This document shows, one piece after another, positions 4,309 to 19,937 of a DNA stretch of 20,000 nt. Positions within the stretch are counted from its first letter, which is position 1. Each line of letters opens with the position of its first letter. Under the pieces are notes generated by a model. That model made no database searches. It was not told the DNA's origin and worked only from the letters and a program-made list of their open reading frames with translations. Both the position numbers and the translations under genes were made by a program. This DNA is from an uncultured virus (IMG/VR IMGVR_UViG_3300007735_000782) (Duplodnaviria > Heunggongvirae > Uroviricota > Caudoviricetes), in IMG/VR virus record IMGVR_UViG_3300007735_000782, one strand, 5' to 3'.

Positions 4309-6234
4309 TCAAAAGAAATCTTCCGTCTCCTCCTCTTCTGGCTTGTAATCCCACGAATGGTAAAGCCTAGTTTTTTCTCCGTTAGGGCCATTCTGGAAGC
4401 TGCTAGTAATCAAGCCCTGCCGCCGTGCCACTTCCAGCATCTTGGCTGTAGATGAAATTTCCAGTGATCCACTTAAAGCCGTCACTTGTTGTTTCGTGAG
4501 TCGTTCCTTCTTACGCATTTGCACTACATTCACGCATTGATCTAATTCAGCCAGTGAACCACCCAGAGGCCCTGCATAATGCCAGCCATAATTCAATGGA
4601 TCACGCTGCAACATGTGTTTACCAGTAAGGCCACTCCTGCTCTTCATCCATTCAAAATGGAATTGGCTAGGGTCACCATTGTTTTCTGGTTTGGTAAGTT
4701 TCACCACTTCACTAACATTATCTACAAAGCTAGTGGAATCCCTTAAGCCACCACTTTTATTTAAATGGTGAAGAATAATAAAACTAACATTATATTTATT
4801 GGCAATATCACGTAGATCATAAATTACATCACCAGCATTACTTCTAACCAAATCAACATCCATGCCAGCAAGGCATGCAGTGAGAGAATCAATGGCAATA
4901 AACACAGGGCGATGTTTTCTCACGTAATCTTCTAATTGCTTGATATGACCAAAACGCCAATTCTCCCAAAATGTAATATCACCTTCTTCAAGCCCTGCAT
5001 CCTTATAACCAATAACACCAAGCTTTTCACTGGTATCAACTAATGGTTCATCACTTTGAATGATCAAGCATTTGCCTTTGAGGCATCGCCTGCCGCTCCA
5101 TGATTGACCAAGGGCAATATTAAGAGCCCAGTTATAGATAAGTGTTGATTTACCGGTGCCGCCTGATGCAGCTAAAAGCATGACGGTTCCTAGTGGCATG
5201 ATTCCTGCAATCAACCATTCTCTACATTGTTCAGACCTAGCAATGGTAAGGGCATCAATGTTTTCAATTTCGTCTTTGCCATAAATACGAGCTTTGGCAT
5301 CTTCAATAGTTTTATCAATGTTTTGCTGCGTCATCTTCACAGAATGCTGTTCTAACCATGAACTGGTTTCATATAGAACACGAGAATCACTGGTATAAAG
5401 ACCAACAAAATTTTCAATGGTAGACATAATTTCATCATATGAAGGCTTACCATCTTTTCCTTTATGAAGATTTGCAGTAATAGAAGCTAATAAGTCATCC
5501 TTTGTAACGCCTTCTTCTATGTAATCAGCTAAATCCAAACCATTGCCATGAGGTAGATTTTTCCATTCCCATGATTTGGGATCGGCATAAAGCCACTGTG
5601 CCCCTGGATTATCGGCTTCAATTTCACGCATAAATGCAACGCCTTGTTCATCACGATCAGGCGCCAACACAATATTATGCTGTTTAAACAATTGCGAATA
5701 ATCGCCATTAGTTCGATATTGTTTACTGCCGCCCAAGAAAGTAACAGCAGGTAGGCCAAGAGACCATACTGCTTCACAAGTTAATTCACCTTCAACAATG
5801 ATAATAGGCAAGCCAGTTTTCTTGCTTTCTTCAACTGCTTCTTTATATTTATATGGAAGAATATTTGCTTTAATATCTTTTAATTGAAGTTGATGATTAG
5901 ACAATGAACGATCAATGGTAGGAAATTCTTGCCATATACGCTTACTGCCATTTGCATCATTGCGATGCACTATTACTACTTCACTGCCAGAGGTATCGGC
6001 ATACGGGAACACATGAGAGCCAGTGGGACGGGCAGGCTTCTCCCATCTCTCCTTCGGGGCCAACGCCTCTCTGATTTCAGCTCGATGAGCGGGGTCTGTA
6101 TTTGCCCAACAGTTATATGCACCTGTCTGTTTATTGACTGTAAAATCATTGCCGTTGCAAGCAGGACAGAAGAATTTGCCTTTATCTGGCGCGGGCTTTA
6201 GCTGATCAATAAATTCCAGGATCGAAAAAGTCAT
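4309..6234 (-). CDS. Bifunctional DNA primase-helicase (Zn finger + TOPRIM + RecA/AAA_25-type ATPase + C-terminal winged-helix-like region)
   Basis: CPACNG..CW zinc finger, TOPRIM IVEGE...APDRDEQG, Walker A ASGGTGKS, Walker B IAIDSL, ILHHLNKSG and KSR motif. Start reassigned to ATG 6234 (MTFSIL) because the promoter overlaps the longer start. Confidence 0.9.
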   Translation of the reverse strand: MTFSILEFIDQLKPAPDKGKFFCPACNGNDFTVNKQTGAYNCWANTDPAHRAEIREALAPKERWEKPARPTGSHVFPYADTSGSEVVIVHRNDANGSKRIWQEFPTIDRSLSNHQLQLKDIKANILPYKYKEAVEESKKTGLPIIIVEGELTCEAVWSLGLPAVTFLGGSKQYRTNGDYSQLFKQHNIVLAPDRDEQGVAFMREIEADNPGAQWLYADPKSWEWKNLPHGNGLDLADYIEEGVTKDDLLASITANLHKGKDGKPSYDEIMSTIENFVGLYTSDSRVLYETSSWLEQHSVKMTQQNIDKTIEDAKARIYGKDEIENIDALTIARSEQCREWLIAGIMPLGTVMLLAASGGTGKSTLIYNWALNIALGQSWSGRRCLKGKCLIIQSDEPLVDTSEKLGVIGYKDAGLEEGDITFWENWRFGHIKQLEDYVRKHRPVFIAIDSLTACLAGMDVDLVRSNAGDVIYDLRDIANKYNVSFIILHHLNKSGGLRDSTSFVDNVSEVVKLTKPENNGDPSQFHFEWMKSRSGLTGKHMLQRDPLNYGWHYAGPLGGSLAELDQCVNVVQMRKKERLTKQQVTALSGSLEISSTAKMLEVARRQGLITSSFQNGPNGEKTRLYHSWDYKPEEEETEDFF

Positions 6235-6256
6235 GCTGCAAGGAATAGCACTCACC

Positions 6257-6350
6257 ATCATGCCAGCCATGGCTGCATTGCGCAAGGTAAATGGGCATAA
6301 GCAATTCTTATGGAAACAATGCTTGCCATTACAAGCTTCTAGGCTATTGT
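6257..6350. promoter_or_regulatory. Divergent promoters between the replication and recombination operons
   Basis: Minus: TTGCGC (6285-6280), 17 nt, CATGAT (6262-6257) with TG extension. Plus: TTGCCA (6323-6328), 16 nt, TATTGT (6345-6350). Confidence 0.6.
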
Positions 6351-6373
6351 GGGCATGAACTTTGCGGCCTTCT

Positions 6374-6610
6374 ATGCCAAAAAGAATTTATGAAGGTGGC
6401 AAACGCCGTCATCATTTCACCATTTCTGATCAAGCATTTGCCCATTTGTCAGCAATTGCTGCAGATGGCACATTGTCTCGTTCGGAAGCGTTAGAGCGTC
6501 TCATACGTTCCACGCCATTATTTGAAGGCAGTGCCACGCTTGCTGATGGTGCCTGGCCTTTTGTTATTGATCACTCATCCCCTTTGCCATTATCCCATGA
6601 ACCTAGCTGA
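6374..6610 (+). CDS. Ribbon-helix-helix (CopG-like) DNA-binding protein
   Basis: KRRHHFTISDQAFAHLSAIAADGTLSRSEALERLIR fits the beta-strand/helix/'SRSE'-helix RHH pattern. First gene of the operon. Confidence 0.75.
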   Translation: MPKRIYEGGKRRHHFTISDQAFAHLSAIAADGTLSRSEALERLIRSTPLFEGSATLADGAWPFVIDHSSPLPLSHEPS

Positions 6611-6848
6611 ATTAATTCAAGCCTTACAGCAAGCCGTTGCATTAGTGCCTGCTGATTCGGAGGTGGTCACTAGCTTTGAACAGGCCACGCTGGAAGAGGG
6701 CTTTTCGTGGGAACACACGGAAGGAATTTCCGATGTTCGCATTTGTAATGATTGGCCCCTGCCAGGTGACAGCATGCTGGTAGCTGAACATGAAAAGCCA
6801 TTTAAGGTGATAATTTTCTATGACATCCATAGCAATTTAAATCCATGA
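6597..6848 (+). CDS. Hypothetical protein
   Basis: MNLAELIQALQQ... start at 6597 within the 3' end of the RHH gene. ATGA coupling to the next gene. Confidence 0.7.
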   Translation: MNLAELIQALQQAVALVPADSEVVTSFEQATLEEGFSWEHTEGISDVRICNDWPLPGDSMLVAEHEKPFKVIIFYDIHSNLNP

Positions 6849-7813
6849 CCTCTTCTTATTTTCTTTACGATCCTAAATTTATGCAATCCCCCGCTGCTTT
6901 TGCTATGGCCGAACGTATGAATGGCATCTTCTCTCCCTTAGAGATTTTGCCTGAAGCTTTCACTAAAGCTTATGAACTTCCCATTGGTGAACATGTAGAG
7001 AAAAACTACAAAGGGCTTTCTTATCTTTCATGGCCTTTTGCTTTTCGCTACCTCAAAGAACAATTCCCTACATTATTTGTAGCTTTTGAAGAAAGCACTG
7101 TGGGGTGGCCAGTATTTGGTCAAACTGGATGTTGGCTATTGCGTCCATACTTAACTGATGGATGTCGTCGCACACCAGCTTTAGTGTTTCCCATTATGGA
7201 CAACAAACATAATGCAGTGAAAGAACTTGATGCTCGTCAAGTAAGCGACAACATTCAAAGGGCTAGCGTTAAATGTATTGCTACTTTCACTGGTTTAGGG
7301 CTCAAGCTGTATTCCGGTGAAGATATTCCTATTAATGATGAAAAAGAACCATCCAAACATGAAAAAGAACCATCTAAACTCCCGCTCCAACAGGAAGCAA
7401 CGAAGCCTGCTGCGAGGGCAGGCACGAAAGCAGCGCCAGTTGCGGAGCATGTTACTGCTCCTGGAGCAACAGGGCTTTCTGCGGCCAGTAGCACCAGTGA
7501 GTTCAATGGCAAAGAAGCGCTTCTTAGCTTCTGTCGAGCCAATCCCCTCGGCTATGGGGAGGAGCGCAGGAGCATGATTGCTGGTAAAACAGCGCTGGAA
7601 GCCCTTGGCCTTTCTAAAGGCGATGATATTAAAGATGCGGCAATGTTTGCCAATGTAGTAACCACCATGGTCACTGCATGGATCAAGGAAGAAGGGCTAA
7701 AGCTTACCAAAGCTCAAATGACTAGTGAATTGGACATTTTAAGAAAAGCTTGTGAAGTGTCAACGGAACAAGCAATCAAGGAGGTGGAGGTTTTTGTGCA
7801 GGGAAAGAAATAA
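6845..7813 (+). CDS. Sak3/DUF1071-family single-strand annealing protein (phage recombinase) with a C-terminal extension
   Basis: GLSYLSWPFA...IMDNKHNAV...VSDNIQRASVKCIA...GLGLKLYSGEDIP matches the Sak3/DUF1071 signature. An Ala/Pro-rich linker and helical C-domain follow. Exonuclease and SSB genes are nearby. Confidence 0.85.
   Translation: MTSSYFLYDPKFMQSPAAFAMAERMNGIFSPLEILPEAFTKAYELPIGEHVEKNYKGLSYLSWPFAFRYLKEQFPTLFVAFEESTVGWPVFGQTGCWLLRPYLTDGCRRTPALVFPIMDNKHNAVKELDARQVSDNIQRASVKCIATFTGLGLKLYSGEDIPINDEKEPSKHEKEPSKLPLQQEATKPAARAGTKAAPVAEHVTAPGATGLSAASSTSEFNGKEALLSFCRANPLGYGEERRSMIAGKTALEALGLSKGDDIKDAAMFANVVTTMVTAWIKEEGLKLTKAQMTSELDILRKACEVSTEQAIKEVEVFVQGKK
7338..7379 (+). repeat. 21-bp tandem duplication in the Sak3 linker
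   Basis: ATGAAAAAGAACCATCCAAAC / ATGAAAAAGAACCATCTAAAC, encoding EKEPSKH-EKEPSKL. Confidence 0.9.
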
Positions 7814-7899
7814 ATCTAGTGGTGGCTCGCTTTGCGCGAGCCTTTGCTGGCACTTATTCTCTTAATGAAAATGGTTCTTTATTTAATGAGGCATTATGA
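7786..7899 (+). other. Putative -1 programmed ribosomal frameshift cassette and 30-codon extension of Sak3
   Basis: GGAGG (7786-7790), 10 nt, in-frame G GGA AAG (7801-7807), 8 nt, hairpin (7816-7850). The -1 frame is open to TGA 7897-7899, which overlaps the ATG at 7896. Confidence 0.65.
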
Positions 7900-8153
7900 C
7901 AAGGGCTGAAATTCAACGACTAATTAAAGTGCTGCGGAATGCTTATGTTTGTTGTCACCAATGTGGCGATAAGTATGGTGTTTACAGTGTTGGTTGTTCG
8001 TCAATGTGGGAAGGAAAATGTGATGTTTGTGGTCAAACTAAAACCATCACTGAAACTAGGGACTGGGCTTATTTTATCACTGGCTTGCGTAAGCTTGATT
8101 TACAATTAGCGGACATTCCTAAAGGTAAACAAAAGAAAATATATAGCGAATGA
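7896..8153 (+). CDS. Small zinc-finger protein
   Basis: CHQC...CDVC cysteine pairs. GAGG RBS-like sequence upstream. ATGA overlap with the exonuclease. Confidence 0.75.
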   Translation: MTRAEIQRLIKVLRNAYVCCHQCGDKYGVYSVGCSSMWEGKCDVCGQTKTITETRDWAYFITGLRKLDLQLADIPKGKQKKIYSE

Positions 8154-8920
8154 AAAATCATCAACTTGTTCGCTATGAACCAAACCGAGTATCGCTAAAT
8201 AATCGTCGCCACTACCAGTGTAGCCAGTTCCCAAATGTTCCAGAAGGTATGCTGCTGCCTTCTGTTACCACTGTGTTGTCTTCTATGGCACCAGTTGGCA
8301 AGATCATGGCTTTGATCAATTGGCGGAAGCGAGTAGGAAACGATGAAGCAAATCGCCGCACAAGGCTTGCTGCTGATCGTGGCACTTGGATGCATGGCGT
8401 AATAGAAGATTTATTCAATGGTGAAGACATAGAAAATCATCTTGAACAAAATAAACAATGGCTGCCATATTACACTGCTGTTGAACCCTTCCTTGAATTA
8501 ATTGATAAGCCATTATTAGCTGAAAGCGCAGTGGCATGGTGGGGAGGAGACAGTGGCATTGGTTATTCAGGGACGTTAGATCAATTAGCACTTATGGCTG
8601 ATGGCGCCATTGCGCTAATGGATTGGAAAACCAGCTATAAGGTGAAGCCTGATTATCAACTGGCTGACTACAAGAAACAACTTGGTGCTTATTCAATGGC
8701 AGCAGAGCAAATGTATGGCATTGATATTGAAGCTGCATATTGCGTGATCAGCGTATATGACCCTGAAGAACCAGATCGTGAAGCAGAGCTACAAATATTA
8801 CAAATGGATGGCTTTGAGCTGGTGCAACAGCAAACCATCATGCAGGACACTATTAAGAGATATTTCAACCAGTTCTACCCAGGCGCAAAAGCATTTGCAT
8901 TAACCATGGATAAGGGGTAA
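8150..8920 (+). CDS. PD-(D/E)XK exonuclease (phage Cas4-like/MGME1-like)
   Basis: LPSVTTVLS, WRKRVG..EANR, AADRGTWMH, GYSGTLD, MDWKTS and QLGAY motifs. Confidence 0.88.
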   Translation: MKNHQLVRYEPNRVSLNNRRHYQCSQFPNVPEGMLLPSVTTVLSSMAPVGKIMALINWRKRVGNDEANRRTRLAADRGTWMHGVIEDLFNGEDIENHLEQNKQWLPYYTAVEPFLELIDKPLLAESAVAWWGGDSGIGYSGTLDQLALMADGAIALMDWKTSYKVKPDYQLADYKKQLGAYSMAAEQMYGIDIEAAYCVISVYDPEEPDREAELQILQMDGFELVQQQTIMQDTIKRYFNQFYPGAKAFALTMDKG

Positions 8921-8923
8921 TAT
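8895..8923 (+). promoter_or_regulatory. Promoter upstream of the SSB gene
   Basis: TTGCAT (8895-8900), 17 nt, TAATAT (8918-8923). Strong AAGGAG RBS precedes 8970. Confidence 0.6.
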
Positions 8924-8969
8924 ATGGGAGCCCAACCGGGCACCACCAACACTCCCAAGGAGAAACACC

Positions 8970-9218
8970 ATGGCCAACAGGCCCCCAATCACCGCTGCAA
9001 TCGACCTCACCCCTGATGTGCTTAATGCATTGAAGAAGGCTGGTCCTAATGAACGCGGTAACTATTCGCTTGATATGGCCGTATGGGTGAATGAAAAGCG
9101 CACTTCCGACAAGGCGCCCAATATGACGGGCTCTGTCAAGGTGAAAGGCGATAAGGATGGCCCTAAGGGCTATGCTTCCGTTTGGCAGAATGACGTTGAA
9201 ACTAACGACGTTTTTTAA
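8970..9218 (+). CDS. Short single-stranded DNA-binding protein (putative)
   Basis: Contains 'SDKAPNMTGSV' and 'GYASVW', has an acidic-aromatic tail NDVETNDVF, and follows the annealing protein and exonuclease. Confidence 0.65.
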   Translation: MANRPPITAAIDLTPDVLNALKKAGPNERGNYSLDMAVWVNEKRTSDKAPNMTGSVKVKGDKDGPKGYASVWQNDVETNDVF

Positions 9219-9221
9219 GCC

Positions 9222-9401
9222 ATGAAAACTACTGCCATTGTCTTGCTTGTTGTTGTTGCTGCTGGCTTGAGTTTGGCAGTAGCTTGTTTGGCCGCTTGGG
9301 CATTGACTGCCATATGGCCGTCTTTGCCCTTTTGGCCTGTTGCTTTTTTAAGCTGGATCGTAATTAGTGTTTTTAGTCGTTCCTCTGCACCATCGTCATG
9401 A
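9222..9401 (+). CDS. Small membrane protein, 59 aa, two predicted TM segments (not in ORF track)
   Basis: MKTTAIVLLVVVAAGLSLAVACLAAWALTAIWPSLPFWPVAFLSWIVISVFSRSSAPSS. ATGA overlap with dcd. Confidence 0.75.
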   Translation: MKTTAIVLLVVVAAGLSLAVACLAAWALTAIWPSLPFWPVAFLSWIVISVFSRSSAPSS

Positions 9402-9997
9402 CCTTGCTTAATGACAAACAAATCAGCAAATTAGCTGAAAATGACATTTTCTTGCCTTTCGTTGGCGAAAAACGAAGAGAGCTTGATAATGGCACAAAGG
9501 CTATTTCTTATGGCCTTTCACAATCAGGCTATGACATTCGATTGTCGTCTGTTGAATTTTTAATTTACGACTCTAATTTAACTTTAGAGAATTTCTTCGA
9601 TGGGCCAGTAATTGACCCGAAAGCTTATAATGGCAATCTTGAGGCAGCCCCATTAGTAGAAGAACCAAATGGTTCTTGTTATTTTGTTCTTCCTGCCAAT
9701 ACATTTGCGCTTGGAACTAGCCTTGAGCTAATATCAATGCCAAATGATGTATTTGCAATTTGTCAAGGAAAATCTACTTATGGCAGGTGTGGGCTTATTG
9801 CTAACATCCTTCCCATTGAACCCGGATGGACAGGCCATTTAACAATGTGCTTGGTAAATCCAACGGAAACTGCCATGCGCATTTATGCAAATGAAGGCAT
9901 TGCACAATTAGTGCTATTTGGCATCGATGAAACCAGTAAGCCTTATGAAGGCATCTATCAAAATCAATCGGCTAGAGTTCACCTAGCTGCAGTTTAA
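9398..9997 (+). CDS. dcd: dCTP deaminase
   Basis: ISYGLSQSGYDIRLS, GKSTYGRCG, PIEPGWTGHLT, IYANEGIAQL and YQNQ motifs. Confidence 0.92.
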   Translation: MTLLNDKQISKLAENDIFLPFVGEKRRELDNGTKAISYGLSQSGYDIRLSSVEFLIYDSNLTLENFFDGPVIDPKAYNGNLEAAPLVEEPNGSCYFVLPANTFALGTSLELISMPNDVFAICQGKSTYGRCGLIANILPIEPGWTGHLTMCLVNPTETAMRIYANEGIAQLVLFGIDETSKPYEGIYQNQSARVHLAAV

Positions 9998-10000
9998 CCA

Positions 10001-10366
10001 TTGAGCGCTCTTGAAGATCAATTCCTTAAGCTTTGGCAAGCACGATTTCCTAAGTTAATTCTTGAAAGAGAATTTTCTGATATTCCTGCATGGGAACAAG
10101 ATTATCAAGAGCGCTATACCAAAAGTAAACGTTCAAAAAGGTATCGTCTTGACTTTGCTCACACCAACAGTTGCACTGGCATCGAAATCCAGGGTGGCGT
10201 TTACATTCGTGGCCGTCATGTCACTGGCAGCGGTTATGAGCGTGATTGCCGCAAATACAATCTTGCGTATACGAGCAAATGGACAATCTTCCTTTTAACT
10301 AGCCAAATGGCCAAGGACGCCGCTTGGCTTTCAATAATTGCCGCTCACATTGCATCTGCTCAATAG
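10001..10366 (+). CDS. DUF559/Vsr-like PD-(D/E)XK endonuclease
   Basis: SALE..F, RYRLDFA, IEIQGG, RH..GSGYERDCRKYNLA...WTIF. TTG start. Confidence 0.8.
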   Translation: MSALEDQFLKLWQARFPKLILEREFSDIPAWEQDYQERYTKSKRSKRYRLDFAHTNSCTGIEIQGGVYIRGRHVTGSGYERDCRKYNLAYTSKWTIFLLTSQMAKDAAWLSIIAAHIASAQ

Positions 10367-10670
10367 TATCGCTTGCTTGAGTCATTATTTCTTCTGCTGC
10401 TTTTAAATCAGCAGCTTGTATTGATAAAGCTTGACGCAATTGTAAATTTTCTAACACTAATTTCTGCAATGCAGTTTGTAATGCGGACCAGCCTTGTAAT
10501 AAGTTTAATGTTACTGGCTTAAGTTGAGACAGGTCTGAACATTCATTAATTGCCCTGGTATTAACCGTAAGGGCAAATTCACGTTCTGCTGAATGCTCAA
10601 ATGGTCCCATAGCAACAATTCGTTTCCGACCATTGTAGATCATTTCCACCGGTAGGCAATACTCAGCCAT
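10299..10670 (-). CDS. Hypothetical coiled-coil protein (start uncertain: 10670 or 10643)
   Basis: Long heptad-rich ORF antisense to the operon, overlapping the endonuclease 3' end by 68 nt. Confidence 0.6.
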   Translation of the reverse strand: MAEYCLPVEMIYNGRKRIVAMGPFEHSAEREFALTVNTRAINECSDLSQLKPVTLNLLQGWSALQTALQKLVLENLQLRQALSIQAADLKAAEEIMTQASDTIEQMQCERQLLKAKRRPWPFG

Positions 10671-12287: not shown

Positions 12288-12767
12288 TTAAACAACACAC
12301 CATTGAGTTGAAGGAAAAGGAGTAATTACTATTCCTTGTTCATGCAATGGTAATGCACGTTGAGTGGCTTCACACCAAGCTTCCCAATCAGATAAATCAG
12401 TGTGAGCCGAAACATAACTATTGTTATATATCCAACTCATTAATACTTTCTCGCGAGAAAGTGACCAAAATCTTTGAGGACGCCACCATTCAAATAATGG
12501 TAAATTACCTTTGCTTGCATTGCAATCCAAACAAGACGGTGCATTATTCCATTTTGCAAAGTGTGGCCCTCCTTTGCTCTTAGGAATGATATGATCAATT
12601 GTTAATTTTTCAGTCCACTTGCCGCAATAAGCGCAAGCGCAATGGCCTAATGGTCCTTTCGTTGGGAAGTCTTCAAAAATACTTTTTCTATATCGACGCT
12701 TAGCATCACCGGGGCGTAATTCAGTAAGCGAATGGAGAAGTTCTTCAGGCCCATTGCTTATCCCCAT
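12288..12767 (-). CDS. HNH endonuclease
   Basis: CAYCG...TIDHIIPKSKGG...NNAPSCLDCNASKG. Confidence 0.92.
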   Translation of the reverse strand: MGISNGPEELLHSLTELRPGDAKRRYRKSIFEDFPTKGPLGHCACAYCGKWTEKLTIDHIIPKSKGGPHFAKWNNAPSCLDCNASKGNLPLFEWWRPQRFWSLSREKVLMSWIYNNSYVSAHTDLSDWEAWCEATQRALPLHEQGIVITPFPSTQWCVV

Positions 12768-19385: not shown

Positions 19386-19937
19386 TTAGGCAATAGCGAG
19401 GTTTGACTGGTCGGCGTAAGTCCAGCCATTCCAGGAATGACTGCAACGCCAGTGGACTGTTGGCTTGGGGACGCCCAGCTCCTTGGCTGCTGTTGTGCCA
19501 GAGTCAAACTCCCCCATTGGAGTGATGACACGCTTAGCGGCGTAGTGCCTGCCGCCGCCAATAGCAGCAGACATTTTTGCTTTTACTTCTGGGCGATGCA
19601 TTGGATTTAAGTCACCCTTGACCCAGTAGTTTGATTGCCCCTTGAGTGCAGAGGCTATCTTTTGCCGAGTCTCGGACGAAGTGGGCTTGCCCAAATTGCC
19701 TTCACTCACGTTCTGAGCGCCTGTCCCAATAAAGACATTGCCAATCTCGTAGTGGCCTTGATCACCCTTACGCATCATGCAGTATTTCAATGCGCCACGT
19801 CCGCGCTCTTCCCAGTGCCCTGAGTCAAGCCAGATCTGTTTCCACTCTTCAAAAGTCAAGCGCATTTCCAGCCCGCGCTGACGGACGTTGCTTTTTTGCT
19901 GCGTGTAAGCCTTGCGGAATGGGTCTTTAGTTGCCAT
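19386..19937 (-). mobile_element. Free-standing HNH-type homing endonuclease gene with NUMOD3/NUMOD1-like DNA-binding motifs
   Basis: 'LTFEEWKQIW..YCMMRKGDQGHYEIGNVFIGT.AQN' nuclease domain, 'SSETRQKIASALKG' and 'PEVKAKMSAA' NUMOD3-like repeats, and a C-terminal HTH 'FDSGTTAAKELGV'. Sits between a tail gene and its chaperone. Confidence 0.8.

Follow-up and report, generated by a model that had tools for sequence, protein, structure and literature searches.

Does the gene for a phage single-strand annealing protein end at its stop codon, or do some of the ribosomes that translate it carry on in another reading frame? The question arises at positions 6845–7813 of a 20,000-nucleotide stretch of DNA from an uncultured virus of the Caudoviricetes (IMG/VR record IMGVR_UViG_3300007735_000782), hereafter called the window. 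There a gene of the Sak type closes on what an initial annotation took for a complete −1 frameshift cassette: a slippery heptamer with Shine-Dalgarno (SD)-like motifs upstream, a hairpin downstream and an open −1 frame. Comparison with related loci strongly supports the core of that proposal. The arrangement is very probably a conserved −1 programmed ribosomal frameshift at the end of the Sak gene, in which tandem tRNA slippage would give a minor 351-residue form beside the 322-residue form. The end of the gene, the heptamer, the SD-like motifs, the hairpin, the −1 open reading frame (ORF), the overlap of its TGA with the next ATG and the two product lengths had all been placed correctly to the base. 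The features, all on the plus strand, are as follows:

6845–7813, plus strand: gene for a Sak-type (PF06378) single-strand annealing protein, 0-frame product of 322 residues

7779–7784 and 7786–7790, plus strand: SD-like AGGAGG and GGAGG, the second ending 10 nucleotides before the heptamer; a possible local stimulator

7801–7807, plus strand: slippery heptamer G_GGA_AAG, an in-frame X_XXY_YYZ, 3 nucleotides before the 0-frame stop

7811–7813, plus strand: 0-frame stop TAA of the predicted short isoform, one codon past the heptamer

7807–7899, plus strand: −1-frame extension, 30 codons after the slip, then TGA at 7897–7899

7816–7850, plus strand: putative stimulatory hairpin, with lower stem 7816–7822/7844–7850 and upper stem 7824–7830/7836–7842

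The final codons of the gene are CAG GGA AAG AAA TAA. After a slip on the heptamer, translation in the −1 frame would read ...GK EINLVVARFARAFAGTYSLNENGSLFNEAL, 30 codons in all, and its TGA overlaps the ATG at 7896 of an 85-residue ORF. An in-frame heptamer in one gene could be due to chance; it is conservation among related sequences that carries the claim of something more. DNA around Sak homologues was drawn from IMG/VR and GTDB genomes. With 33 locus identifiers that repeated sampled contigs and a duplicate record of phage S-CBS4 dropped, the sample comprised 187 distinct sequences including the window, three of which end on the contig before the end of the gene, leaving 184 that could be evaluated. 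Sak identity of the relatives to the window ranges from 47 to 98%, and the closest cultured one, Synechococcus phage S-CBS4, has 56% identity and shares the gene order.

A canonical slippery heptamer lies in frame, 0 or 3 nucleotides ahead of the Sak stop, in all 184 evaluable sequences; 183 were counted automatically, and the remaining one (L084), flagged twice by a loose pattern, carries the cassette on direct view. Among the 183, which include 139 distinct 100-nucleotide versions, the heptamer is A_AAA_AAG in 135 and G_GGA_AAG in 48, and it stands 0 nucleotides from the stop in 69 and 3 nucleotides from it in 114. One further clade at 50% identity (P0126, protein end ...GEKK), for which no DNA was found in viral or metagenome contigs, lies outside these counts.

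Homopolymer runs are error-prone in some sequencing chemistries, and a sequencing or assembly error might in principle have split what is truly a single 351-codon frame. The same two-frame layout recurs, however, in all 184 sequences, each on its own contig, and is identical where the heptamer is the non-homopolymeric G_GGA_AAG. It is also present in the finished genome of the isolate S-CBS4, whose RefSeq record annotates Sak but neither a frameshift nor anything in the tail region. Nor was an in-frame version found: there is no Sak-tail fusion among the 120 homologues listed (230–324 residues, nearly all ending ...GK-x), no tail motif in frame in the best 150 Sak-family representatives at 50% identity and no fused Sak at any of the 184 loci. 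We regard the error reading as already refuted by the number of independent contigs.

On a tree inferred from 94 different Sak proteins, each trimmed of its last 6 residues, the heptamer type switches at least four times, and type and position taken together at least seven times. Every switch yields a classical slippery sequence; the site is rebuilt and never lost. In the 28 unique G-type genes the codon ahead of GGA ends in G without exception (GCG 13, CAG 10, GAG 4, GTG 1), whichever of Ala, Gln, Glu or Val it encodes, although gene-wide Ala is encoded by GCG in 14% of cases, Gln by CAG in 35%, Glu by GAG in 42% and Val by GTG in 39%; GGA itself accounts for only 19% of Gly codons in these genes. 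Likewise, the codon ahead of the run ends in A in 70 of 70 unique A-type genes, with six different codons used. Such frozen synonymous sites are explained by selection on the nucleotide heptamer rather than on the protein.

The same data bear on whether RNA polymerase rather than the ribosome slips, with one extra base in the mRNA giving the long form. Some dnaX and IS genes are known to undergo transcriptional slippage on runs of A, and the A_AAA_AAG of 135 of the 183 relatives is a run of six (in some, seven) A. Against this, the G_GGA_AAG of the window and 47 relatives contains at most three identical bases in a row, and the tree shows repeated switches between the two heptamers. Moreover, the X_XXY_YYZ register, including the base before the run, is conserved together with a hairpin 5–8 nucleotides downstream; these are the needs of tandem tRNA slippage and not of polymerase slippage, which we therefore consider a very improbable source of the long form.

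Beyond the heptamer, the −1 frame has the character of a coding sequence. Within each triplet, variability is highest at the 0-frame third position 5′ of the heptamer and at the −1-frame third position directly 3′ of it (33 unique sequences), and the downstream entropy for the three −1 codon positions is 0.78, 0.52 and 1.20 (85 unique sequences). Past the two heptamer codons the −1 frame is open for 21–43 residues (median 35) in 182 of 182 complete cases. The encoded peptide is conserved across 129 distinct versions, with a helix of consensus DLAAARLARAFAG followed by an acidic tail. Its general pattern is [GK]K-x-[IV]-D-L-A-A-A-R-L-A-R-A-F-A-G, then 2–4 hydrophobic residues and an acidic stretch (often D-x-D-G-x-P-L); in the S-CBS4-like clade it continues with ...P-P-x-L-F-G-E. 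The part after the helix has a mean net charge of −3.3 (range −5 to +1), and LF occurs within the last five residues of 41 of 86 unique tails, which might hint at clamp binding, an idea given no weight here. The peptide pattern is kept in clades in which the hairpin is replaced or lost. When the extension piece (32 residues) was modelled alone with an alignment, residues 2–15 formed a helix and the remainder coil (mean predicted local distance difference test score, pLDDT, 74.8), and the extension is predicted to be an amphipathic helix followed by an acidic coil with a hydrophobic end. It has no match in PHROGs or Pfam, and PDB sequences gave one chance match (E 1.7).

Two individual sequences deserve mention beside this peptide. 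At L172 (~2040–2180), about eight extra −1 residues (…INETVPYIDQ…) stand between A_AAA_AAG and the conserved helix, so the tail tolerates insertion at its start. A protein of 214 residues (P0122), the one match of the extension profile among longer proteins, was considered as a fused Sak and rejected: it is without a Sak domain, only its residues 161–214 match the −1 frame, and its first 80 residues match phrog_20561, a family of unknown function. It may be an odd or over-long ORF call or a rearranged contig.

A conserved −1 peptide might equally belong to a small gene of its own at 7819–7899, started at GTG 7819 or by re-initiation after the Sak stop, with the heptamer incidental. Small overlapping genes abound in phage operons, and the window and its closest relatives do have GTG codons 18 and 21 nucleotides after the start of the heptamer (7819 and 7822 in the window). 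In most relatives, however, these positions are GCN (Ala) codons. ATG, GTG and TTG are entirely absent from 86 of the 182 complete −1 ORFs, and 85 of 116 have no start early enough to include the conserved helix. A −1-frame stop lies within 24 nucleotides upstream of the heptamer in 56 of 116. Peptide conservation and the −1 wobble periodicity begin directly at the heptamer, ahead of any such start, and a separate gene would leave the frozen synonymous sites of the heptamer unexplained. An independent GTG start, which the initial annotation had named as a potential refutation of its proposal, is accordingly not borne out, and we judge a separate small gene to be extremely unlikely.

The third component, the hairpin, begins 8 nucleotides past the heptamer in the window, has a loop at 7831–7835 and single-base bulges at 7823 and 7843, and is stable: RNA folding of 7808–7870 gives −20.6 kcal/mol (z = −4.0), with none of 200 shuffles as stable. 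Its evolution was assessed on an ungapped alignment of 85 unique sequences, using the structure drawn in the initial annotation. Standard pairs occupy 91.2% of cells, versus 39–50% when the 3′ partner is slid by 1–3 columns, and 8 of the 14 pairs show changes on both sides, that is, compensatory ones. The clearest case is the lower-stem pair of columns 26/50, with AU in 43 sequences, GC in 24 and GU in 9. In the −1 frame both columns fall on wobble positions (GCA/GCG for Ala; TTT/TTC for Phe), so that their coupling can only be RNA-driven. The upper stem occurs in alternative forms (GGCCCGC/GCGGGCC, GGCCCTC/GAGGGCC, GGCGGCC/GGCCGCC, GGCCAGC/GCTGGCC and others), and these swaps do alter the peptide, with L, S or A in place of R. 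Heptamer and hairpin are separated by 8 nucleotides, or by 5 where the heptamer abuts the stop. Taken together, the alignments indicate that the hairpin is selected as an RNA element.

Most lineages without this hairpin have another in its stead, differently placed and equally stable (z −5.2 in L011, −3.1 in L019, −4.6 in L018 and −3.3 in L020). The exchange of hairpins with the peptide pattern kept (L011–L013, L019, L030, L035; L018, L020) is a case of structural turnover of a putative frameshift stimulator.

A stable, covarying hairpin just past a stop codon, a frequent place of terminators and stabilisers, could also be an RNA element and nothing else, serving to terminate transcription, mark a processing site or stabilise the mRNA, with the open −1 frame a by-product. 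For termination the expected signs are missing. A scan of 6000–10500 for intrinsic terminators lists no site at 7816–7850, and no U-run follows the stem; what follows it is UUUGCUGG, which forms the lower stem. A search of 7600–8100 against Rfam gave no family match, only noise even at a permissive threshold. Conservation of the −1 peptide, moreover, extends past the hairpin and persists in clades that lack or have replaced it, and neither the 21–43 open residues in every complete case nor the conservation of the heptamer would find an explanation. The idea that the hairpin is a mere terminator, raised at the outset as a way in which the frameshift proposal might fail, did not hold up, and an exclusively RNA-level role is, like the separate small gene, extremely unlikely.

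Returning to the preferred reading, a programmed −1 frameshift, the following sequence of events would account for the two products. Most ribosomes would read CAG GGA AAG AAA and stop at TAA 7811–7813, giving 322 residues. A ribosome with GGA in the P site and AAG in the A site would meet the hairpin at 7816–7850, and a fraction would slip back by one base, the tRNAs re-pairing to GGG and AAA. The slipped ribosomes would then read 30 codons of the −1 frame to TGA 7897–7899 and release the 351-residue isoform, in which the tail would prolong the last helix of the C-terminal domain by an amphipathic helix, a hydrophobic stretch and a flexible acidic end. The alignments show a conserved slippery signal, a covarying hairpin and a −1 frame with coding character; from these we infer slipping in vivo, at a rate that would set the fraction of the long form, and by extension a role for the tail.

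Several points weigh against this interpretation, or at least against parts of it. (i) A GGAGG 6–14 nucleotides upstream of the heptamer is present in only 14 of 119 sequences, and any GGAG or GAGG in only 18 of 119; the motif falls in K-E-V-E-V codons and is confined to the clade of the window and a few others. (ii) Four sampled lineages (L031, L021, L070 and L064) have no significant downstream fold (z +0.36 to −1.08), so the hairpin is not present throughout, barring an overlooked pseudoknot or long-range pairing. (iii) The covariation score is 0.301 and that of shuffles 0.152, and none of 500 shuffles scores as high, but kinship among the sequences makes this control overstate significance; the slid-partner control and the covariation at synonymous sites are the fairer measures. 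(iv) Conservation of the helix-coding part of the −1 frame is confounded, as the same bases build the hairpin. (v) The long product is a prediction from comparative sequence data, and the runs listed with DNA of 7300–8300 include no RNA run. (vi) Slip efficiency depends on the set of Lys-tRNAs, as known from E. coli, and is not predictable in this host.

The first of these points qualifies the claim of a complete cassette. Heptamer, hairpin and open −1 frame stand, whereas the upstream SD-like element, likened at first to the stimulator of E. coli dnaX, is on the alignments not a conserved part of the cassette. A second proposal fared no better, namely that only shifted ribosomes feed the downstream genes for a Zn-finger-like protein and an exonuclease. 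A start codon within −8 to +11 nucleotides of the −1 stop, opening an ORF of at least 30 residues, occurs in 78 of 116 sequences with varied offsets and codons. The ATG at 7896 of the window has its own GAGG 4 nucleotides upstream, and the Zn-finger gene is present in only 12 of 118 loci. As a general design, such coupling is not supported; for the window alone it is a conjecture, as is the suggested control of the ratio of annealase to exonuclease.

The identity of the annealase itself is well grounded. The 322-residue ORF matches PF06378, presumably the former DUF1071, over residues 43–180 (E 5.3e-17, 62.2 bits against a Pfam cut-off of 22.3), and its best PHROGs assignment is phrog_8492, ‘Sak-like ssDNA annealing protein’ (E 1.9e-43); the label Sak3 given to it at first is acceptable on this basis. 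An AlphaFold (AF2) model, made with 27 homologues in the alignment, shows an ordered, Rad52-like N-terminal domain (~16–155), a disordered linker (156–218) and a C-terminal domain of five helices (222–321, block pLDDT 82–91), the last of which (307–321) reaches the slip site. The N-terminal domain superposes on the solved Sak of phage 80alpha (8pq8_A) with Z 10.1 and a root-mean-square deviation of 3.0 over 114 aligned residues, and further fold matches are Mgm101 (Z 7.9) and RAD52 (Z 6.8). Foldseek agrees, with probability 1.00 to 8qe9 and 8pq8 (E 0.014–0.037). By sequence family and modelled fold, the product of 6845–7813 is a Rad52-like annealase of the Sak type, with annealing activity predicted. 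For the C-terminal domain, fold searches gave no informative match, only middling helical ones (Z up to 7.2). It is reached by only 6 of the best 150 Sak-family representatives and is confined to this aquatic-phage clade.

The gene sits in a phage replication and nucleotide-metabolism module, and two further features adjoin it:

7896–8153, plus strand: Cys-rich, Zn-finger-like ORF of 85 residues, its ATG overlapping the −1 stop (ATGA)

8150–8920, plus strand: PD-(D/E)XK exonuclease (PF12705, E 4.2e-7; phrog_298, E 1.4e-43)

Against Pfam, the 85-residue ORF gave only Lar_restr_allev below threshold (E 0.004, 17.8 bits against a cut-off of 28.6). The exonuclease is a probable partner of the annealase in a two-component recombinase, and an exonuclease lies downstream of Sak in 102 of 118 loci. 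In the window, family scans place a primase-helicase (4309–6285, minus strand) 5′ of Sak on the opposite strand, and no polymerase was seen in these scans of the 20-kb replication module. The gene order 3′ of Sak is the Cys-rich ORF, exonuclease, dCTP deaminase, thymidylate synthase and nucleotide kinase, then lysis and virion genes. An HNH endonuclease gene (12288–12767, minus strand; phrog_2214, E 3.9e-22) adjoins the thymidylate synthase and nucleotide kinase genes, and a weak homing-endonuclease-like match (19386–19937, minus strand; phrog_314, E 2.1e-6) is found close to the tail-fibre genes; each may be a mobile insertion.

What might the tail do? Our best guess, which proceeds by analogy, is that it is a partner-docking peptide present on some subunits only of the annealase oligomer, with the exonuclease, a host replication protein or a client of single-stranded DNA-binding protein (SSB) among the possible partners. 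The C-terminal tip of bacterial SSB is a protein-docking peptide, and the acidic tips found in the Sak family resemble it: an acidic ...[DE]-[DE]-[VLI]-P-F tip occurs in 18 of the best 150 representatives of the family at 50% identity (e.g., P0136, P0137, P0139, P0143 and P0148–P0151). Many Sak annealases thus seem to carry an SSB-like docking tail constitutively, and the present clade may add its acidic, hydrophobic-tipped tail by recoding instead. A docking role is favoured by these tips and, for an exonuclease partner, by the analogy to Red-beta and Exo of phage lambda. A more specific version, in which the tail is a replisome- or partner-docking peptide on a fraction of the subunits of the annealase ring, with that fraction set by the slip rate, is a tentative idea that we think unlikely as it stands.

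The C-terminus of DnaX (tau) was also compared with the frameshift tail, using 22 DnaX tails from Verrucomicrobiota; the comparison of most relevance would be with cyanobacterial DnaX. These DnaX tails share the motif D-P-x-V-x-x-x-L-x-L-F-x-G-x-V-V-D-V, which hhalign sets in register with A-A-R-L-A-R-A-F-A-G-x-I, both containing F-x-G, at P 0.0059 and a probability of 6%. The extension profile found no DnaX at E up to 10 in two Verrucomicrobiota genomes (G002 and G003), and a word-indexed protein search with the same profile, weak in that 8000 candidates were scored, likewise found none at E up to 10. In the opposite direction, a hidden Markov model of the DnaX tail placed its top-scoring extension peptide at rank 43 among 16,698 six-frame peptides from the phage loci (E >30). 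With these verrucomicrobial tails, the resemblance does not exceed chance.

Two contigs with the Sak cassette, L120 (76.8 kb) and L121, lie in bins labelled Methylacidiphilales / Verrucomicrobia. The Sak of L120 is nearest on the tree to that of an IMG/VR contig of 77 kb (L037), which makes L120 a probable phage contig, either binned together with that bacterium or from a phage that infects it. The hosts of this clade may not be limited to cyanobacteria. DNA near-identical to 7300–8300 of the window occurs in metagenome runs from 12 studies, covering river, lake, wetland, wastewater and runoff. Under the label of a single coded organism (‘organism A’), four runs contain 42–74% of the sampled words of 7300–8300, and these might be a culture carrying a relative of this phage.

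Known systems offer partial parallels. The −1 frameshift of the lambda G/GT tail assembly chaperone has G GGA AAG as its slippery site, close to where gene G ends. The window has the identical heptamer at the end of the upstream frame, and in both cases a C-terminal extension would be placed on a minority of products that share an N-terminal body. In contrast to G/GT, Sak is a recombination annealase, its extension comprises 21–43 residues and not a whole domain or gene, and a covarying hairpin is present. In E. coli dnaX, which makes tau and gamma, A AAA AAG is accompanied by an SD about 10 nucleotides upstream and a hairpin downstream. The heptamer of most of the relatives, the hairpin 5–8 nucleotides downstream and the GGAGG of the window, 10 nucleotides upstream, are all reminiscent of this arrangement; however, the shift would lengthen Sak whereas it truncates the dnaX product, and the upstream SD is not conserved here. 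The Sak/Sak3 annealases of lactococcal and staphylococcal phages (PF06378; 80alpha, 8pq8 and 8qe9) resemble the present protein in N-terminal sequence and fold, but the helical C-terminal domain and the frameshift tail are found only in this aquatic-phage clade. In lambda Red-beta, a C-terminal domain is reported to bind lambda Exo and SSB (PMC6393309), and so serves as a protein-docking module. As in that system, the annealase gene here stands beside an exonuclease gene. No sequence or fold match to the Red-beta C-terminal domain was seen, and docking by the tail is proposed here by analogy.

Programmed frameshifts in phages are known mostly from tail-chaperone, capsid and transposase genes. 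In the full-text literature searched, supplements aside, we found no description of recoding in Sak or any other annealase gene, in line with the first impression that none had been described for Sak3; the frameshifts discussed in a portion of PMC4759559 are tail-protein ones only. The mechanism proposed is thus classical and its setting new, in a recombination gene, where it has gone unannotated even in the RefSeq record of the cultured phage S-CBS4.

For annotation, this means that the extension escapes gene callers on no fewer than 184 contigs. Because S-CBS4 and its host, Synechococcus sp. CB0101, are both in culture, direct tests are feasible, and in recombineering of cyanobacteria, leaving out the long isoform may cost activity. 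For the annealases themselves, the finding would mean that the Sak proteins of this clade exist as two isoforms in a fixed ratio. Annealases act as oligomeric rings or filaments together with an exonuclease, and a sub-stoichiometric tail would be a simple way to provide a few docking sites per assembly. If docking is indeed its role, the tail could tether the exonuclease or host replication proteins, such as SSB clients or the clamp, to sites of annealing.

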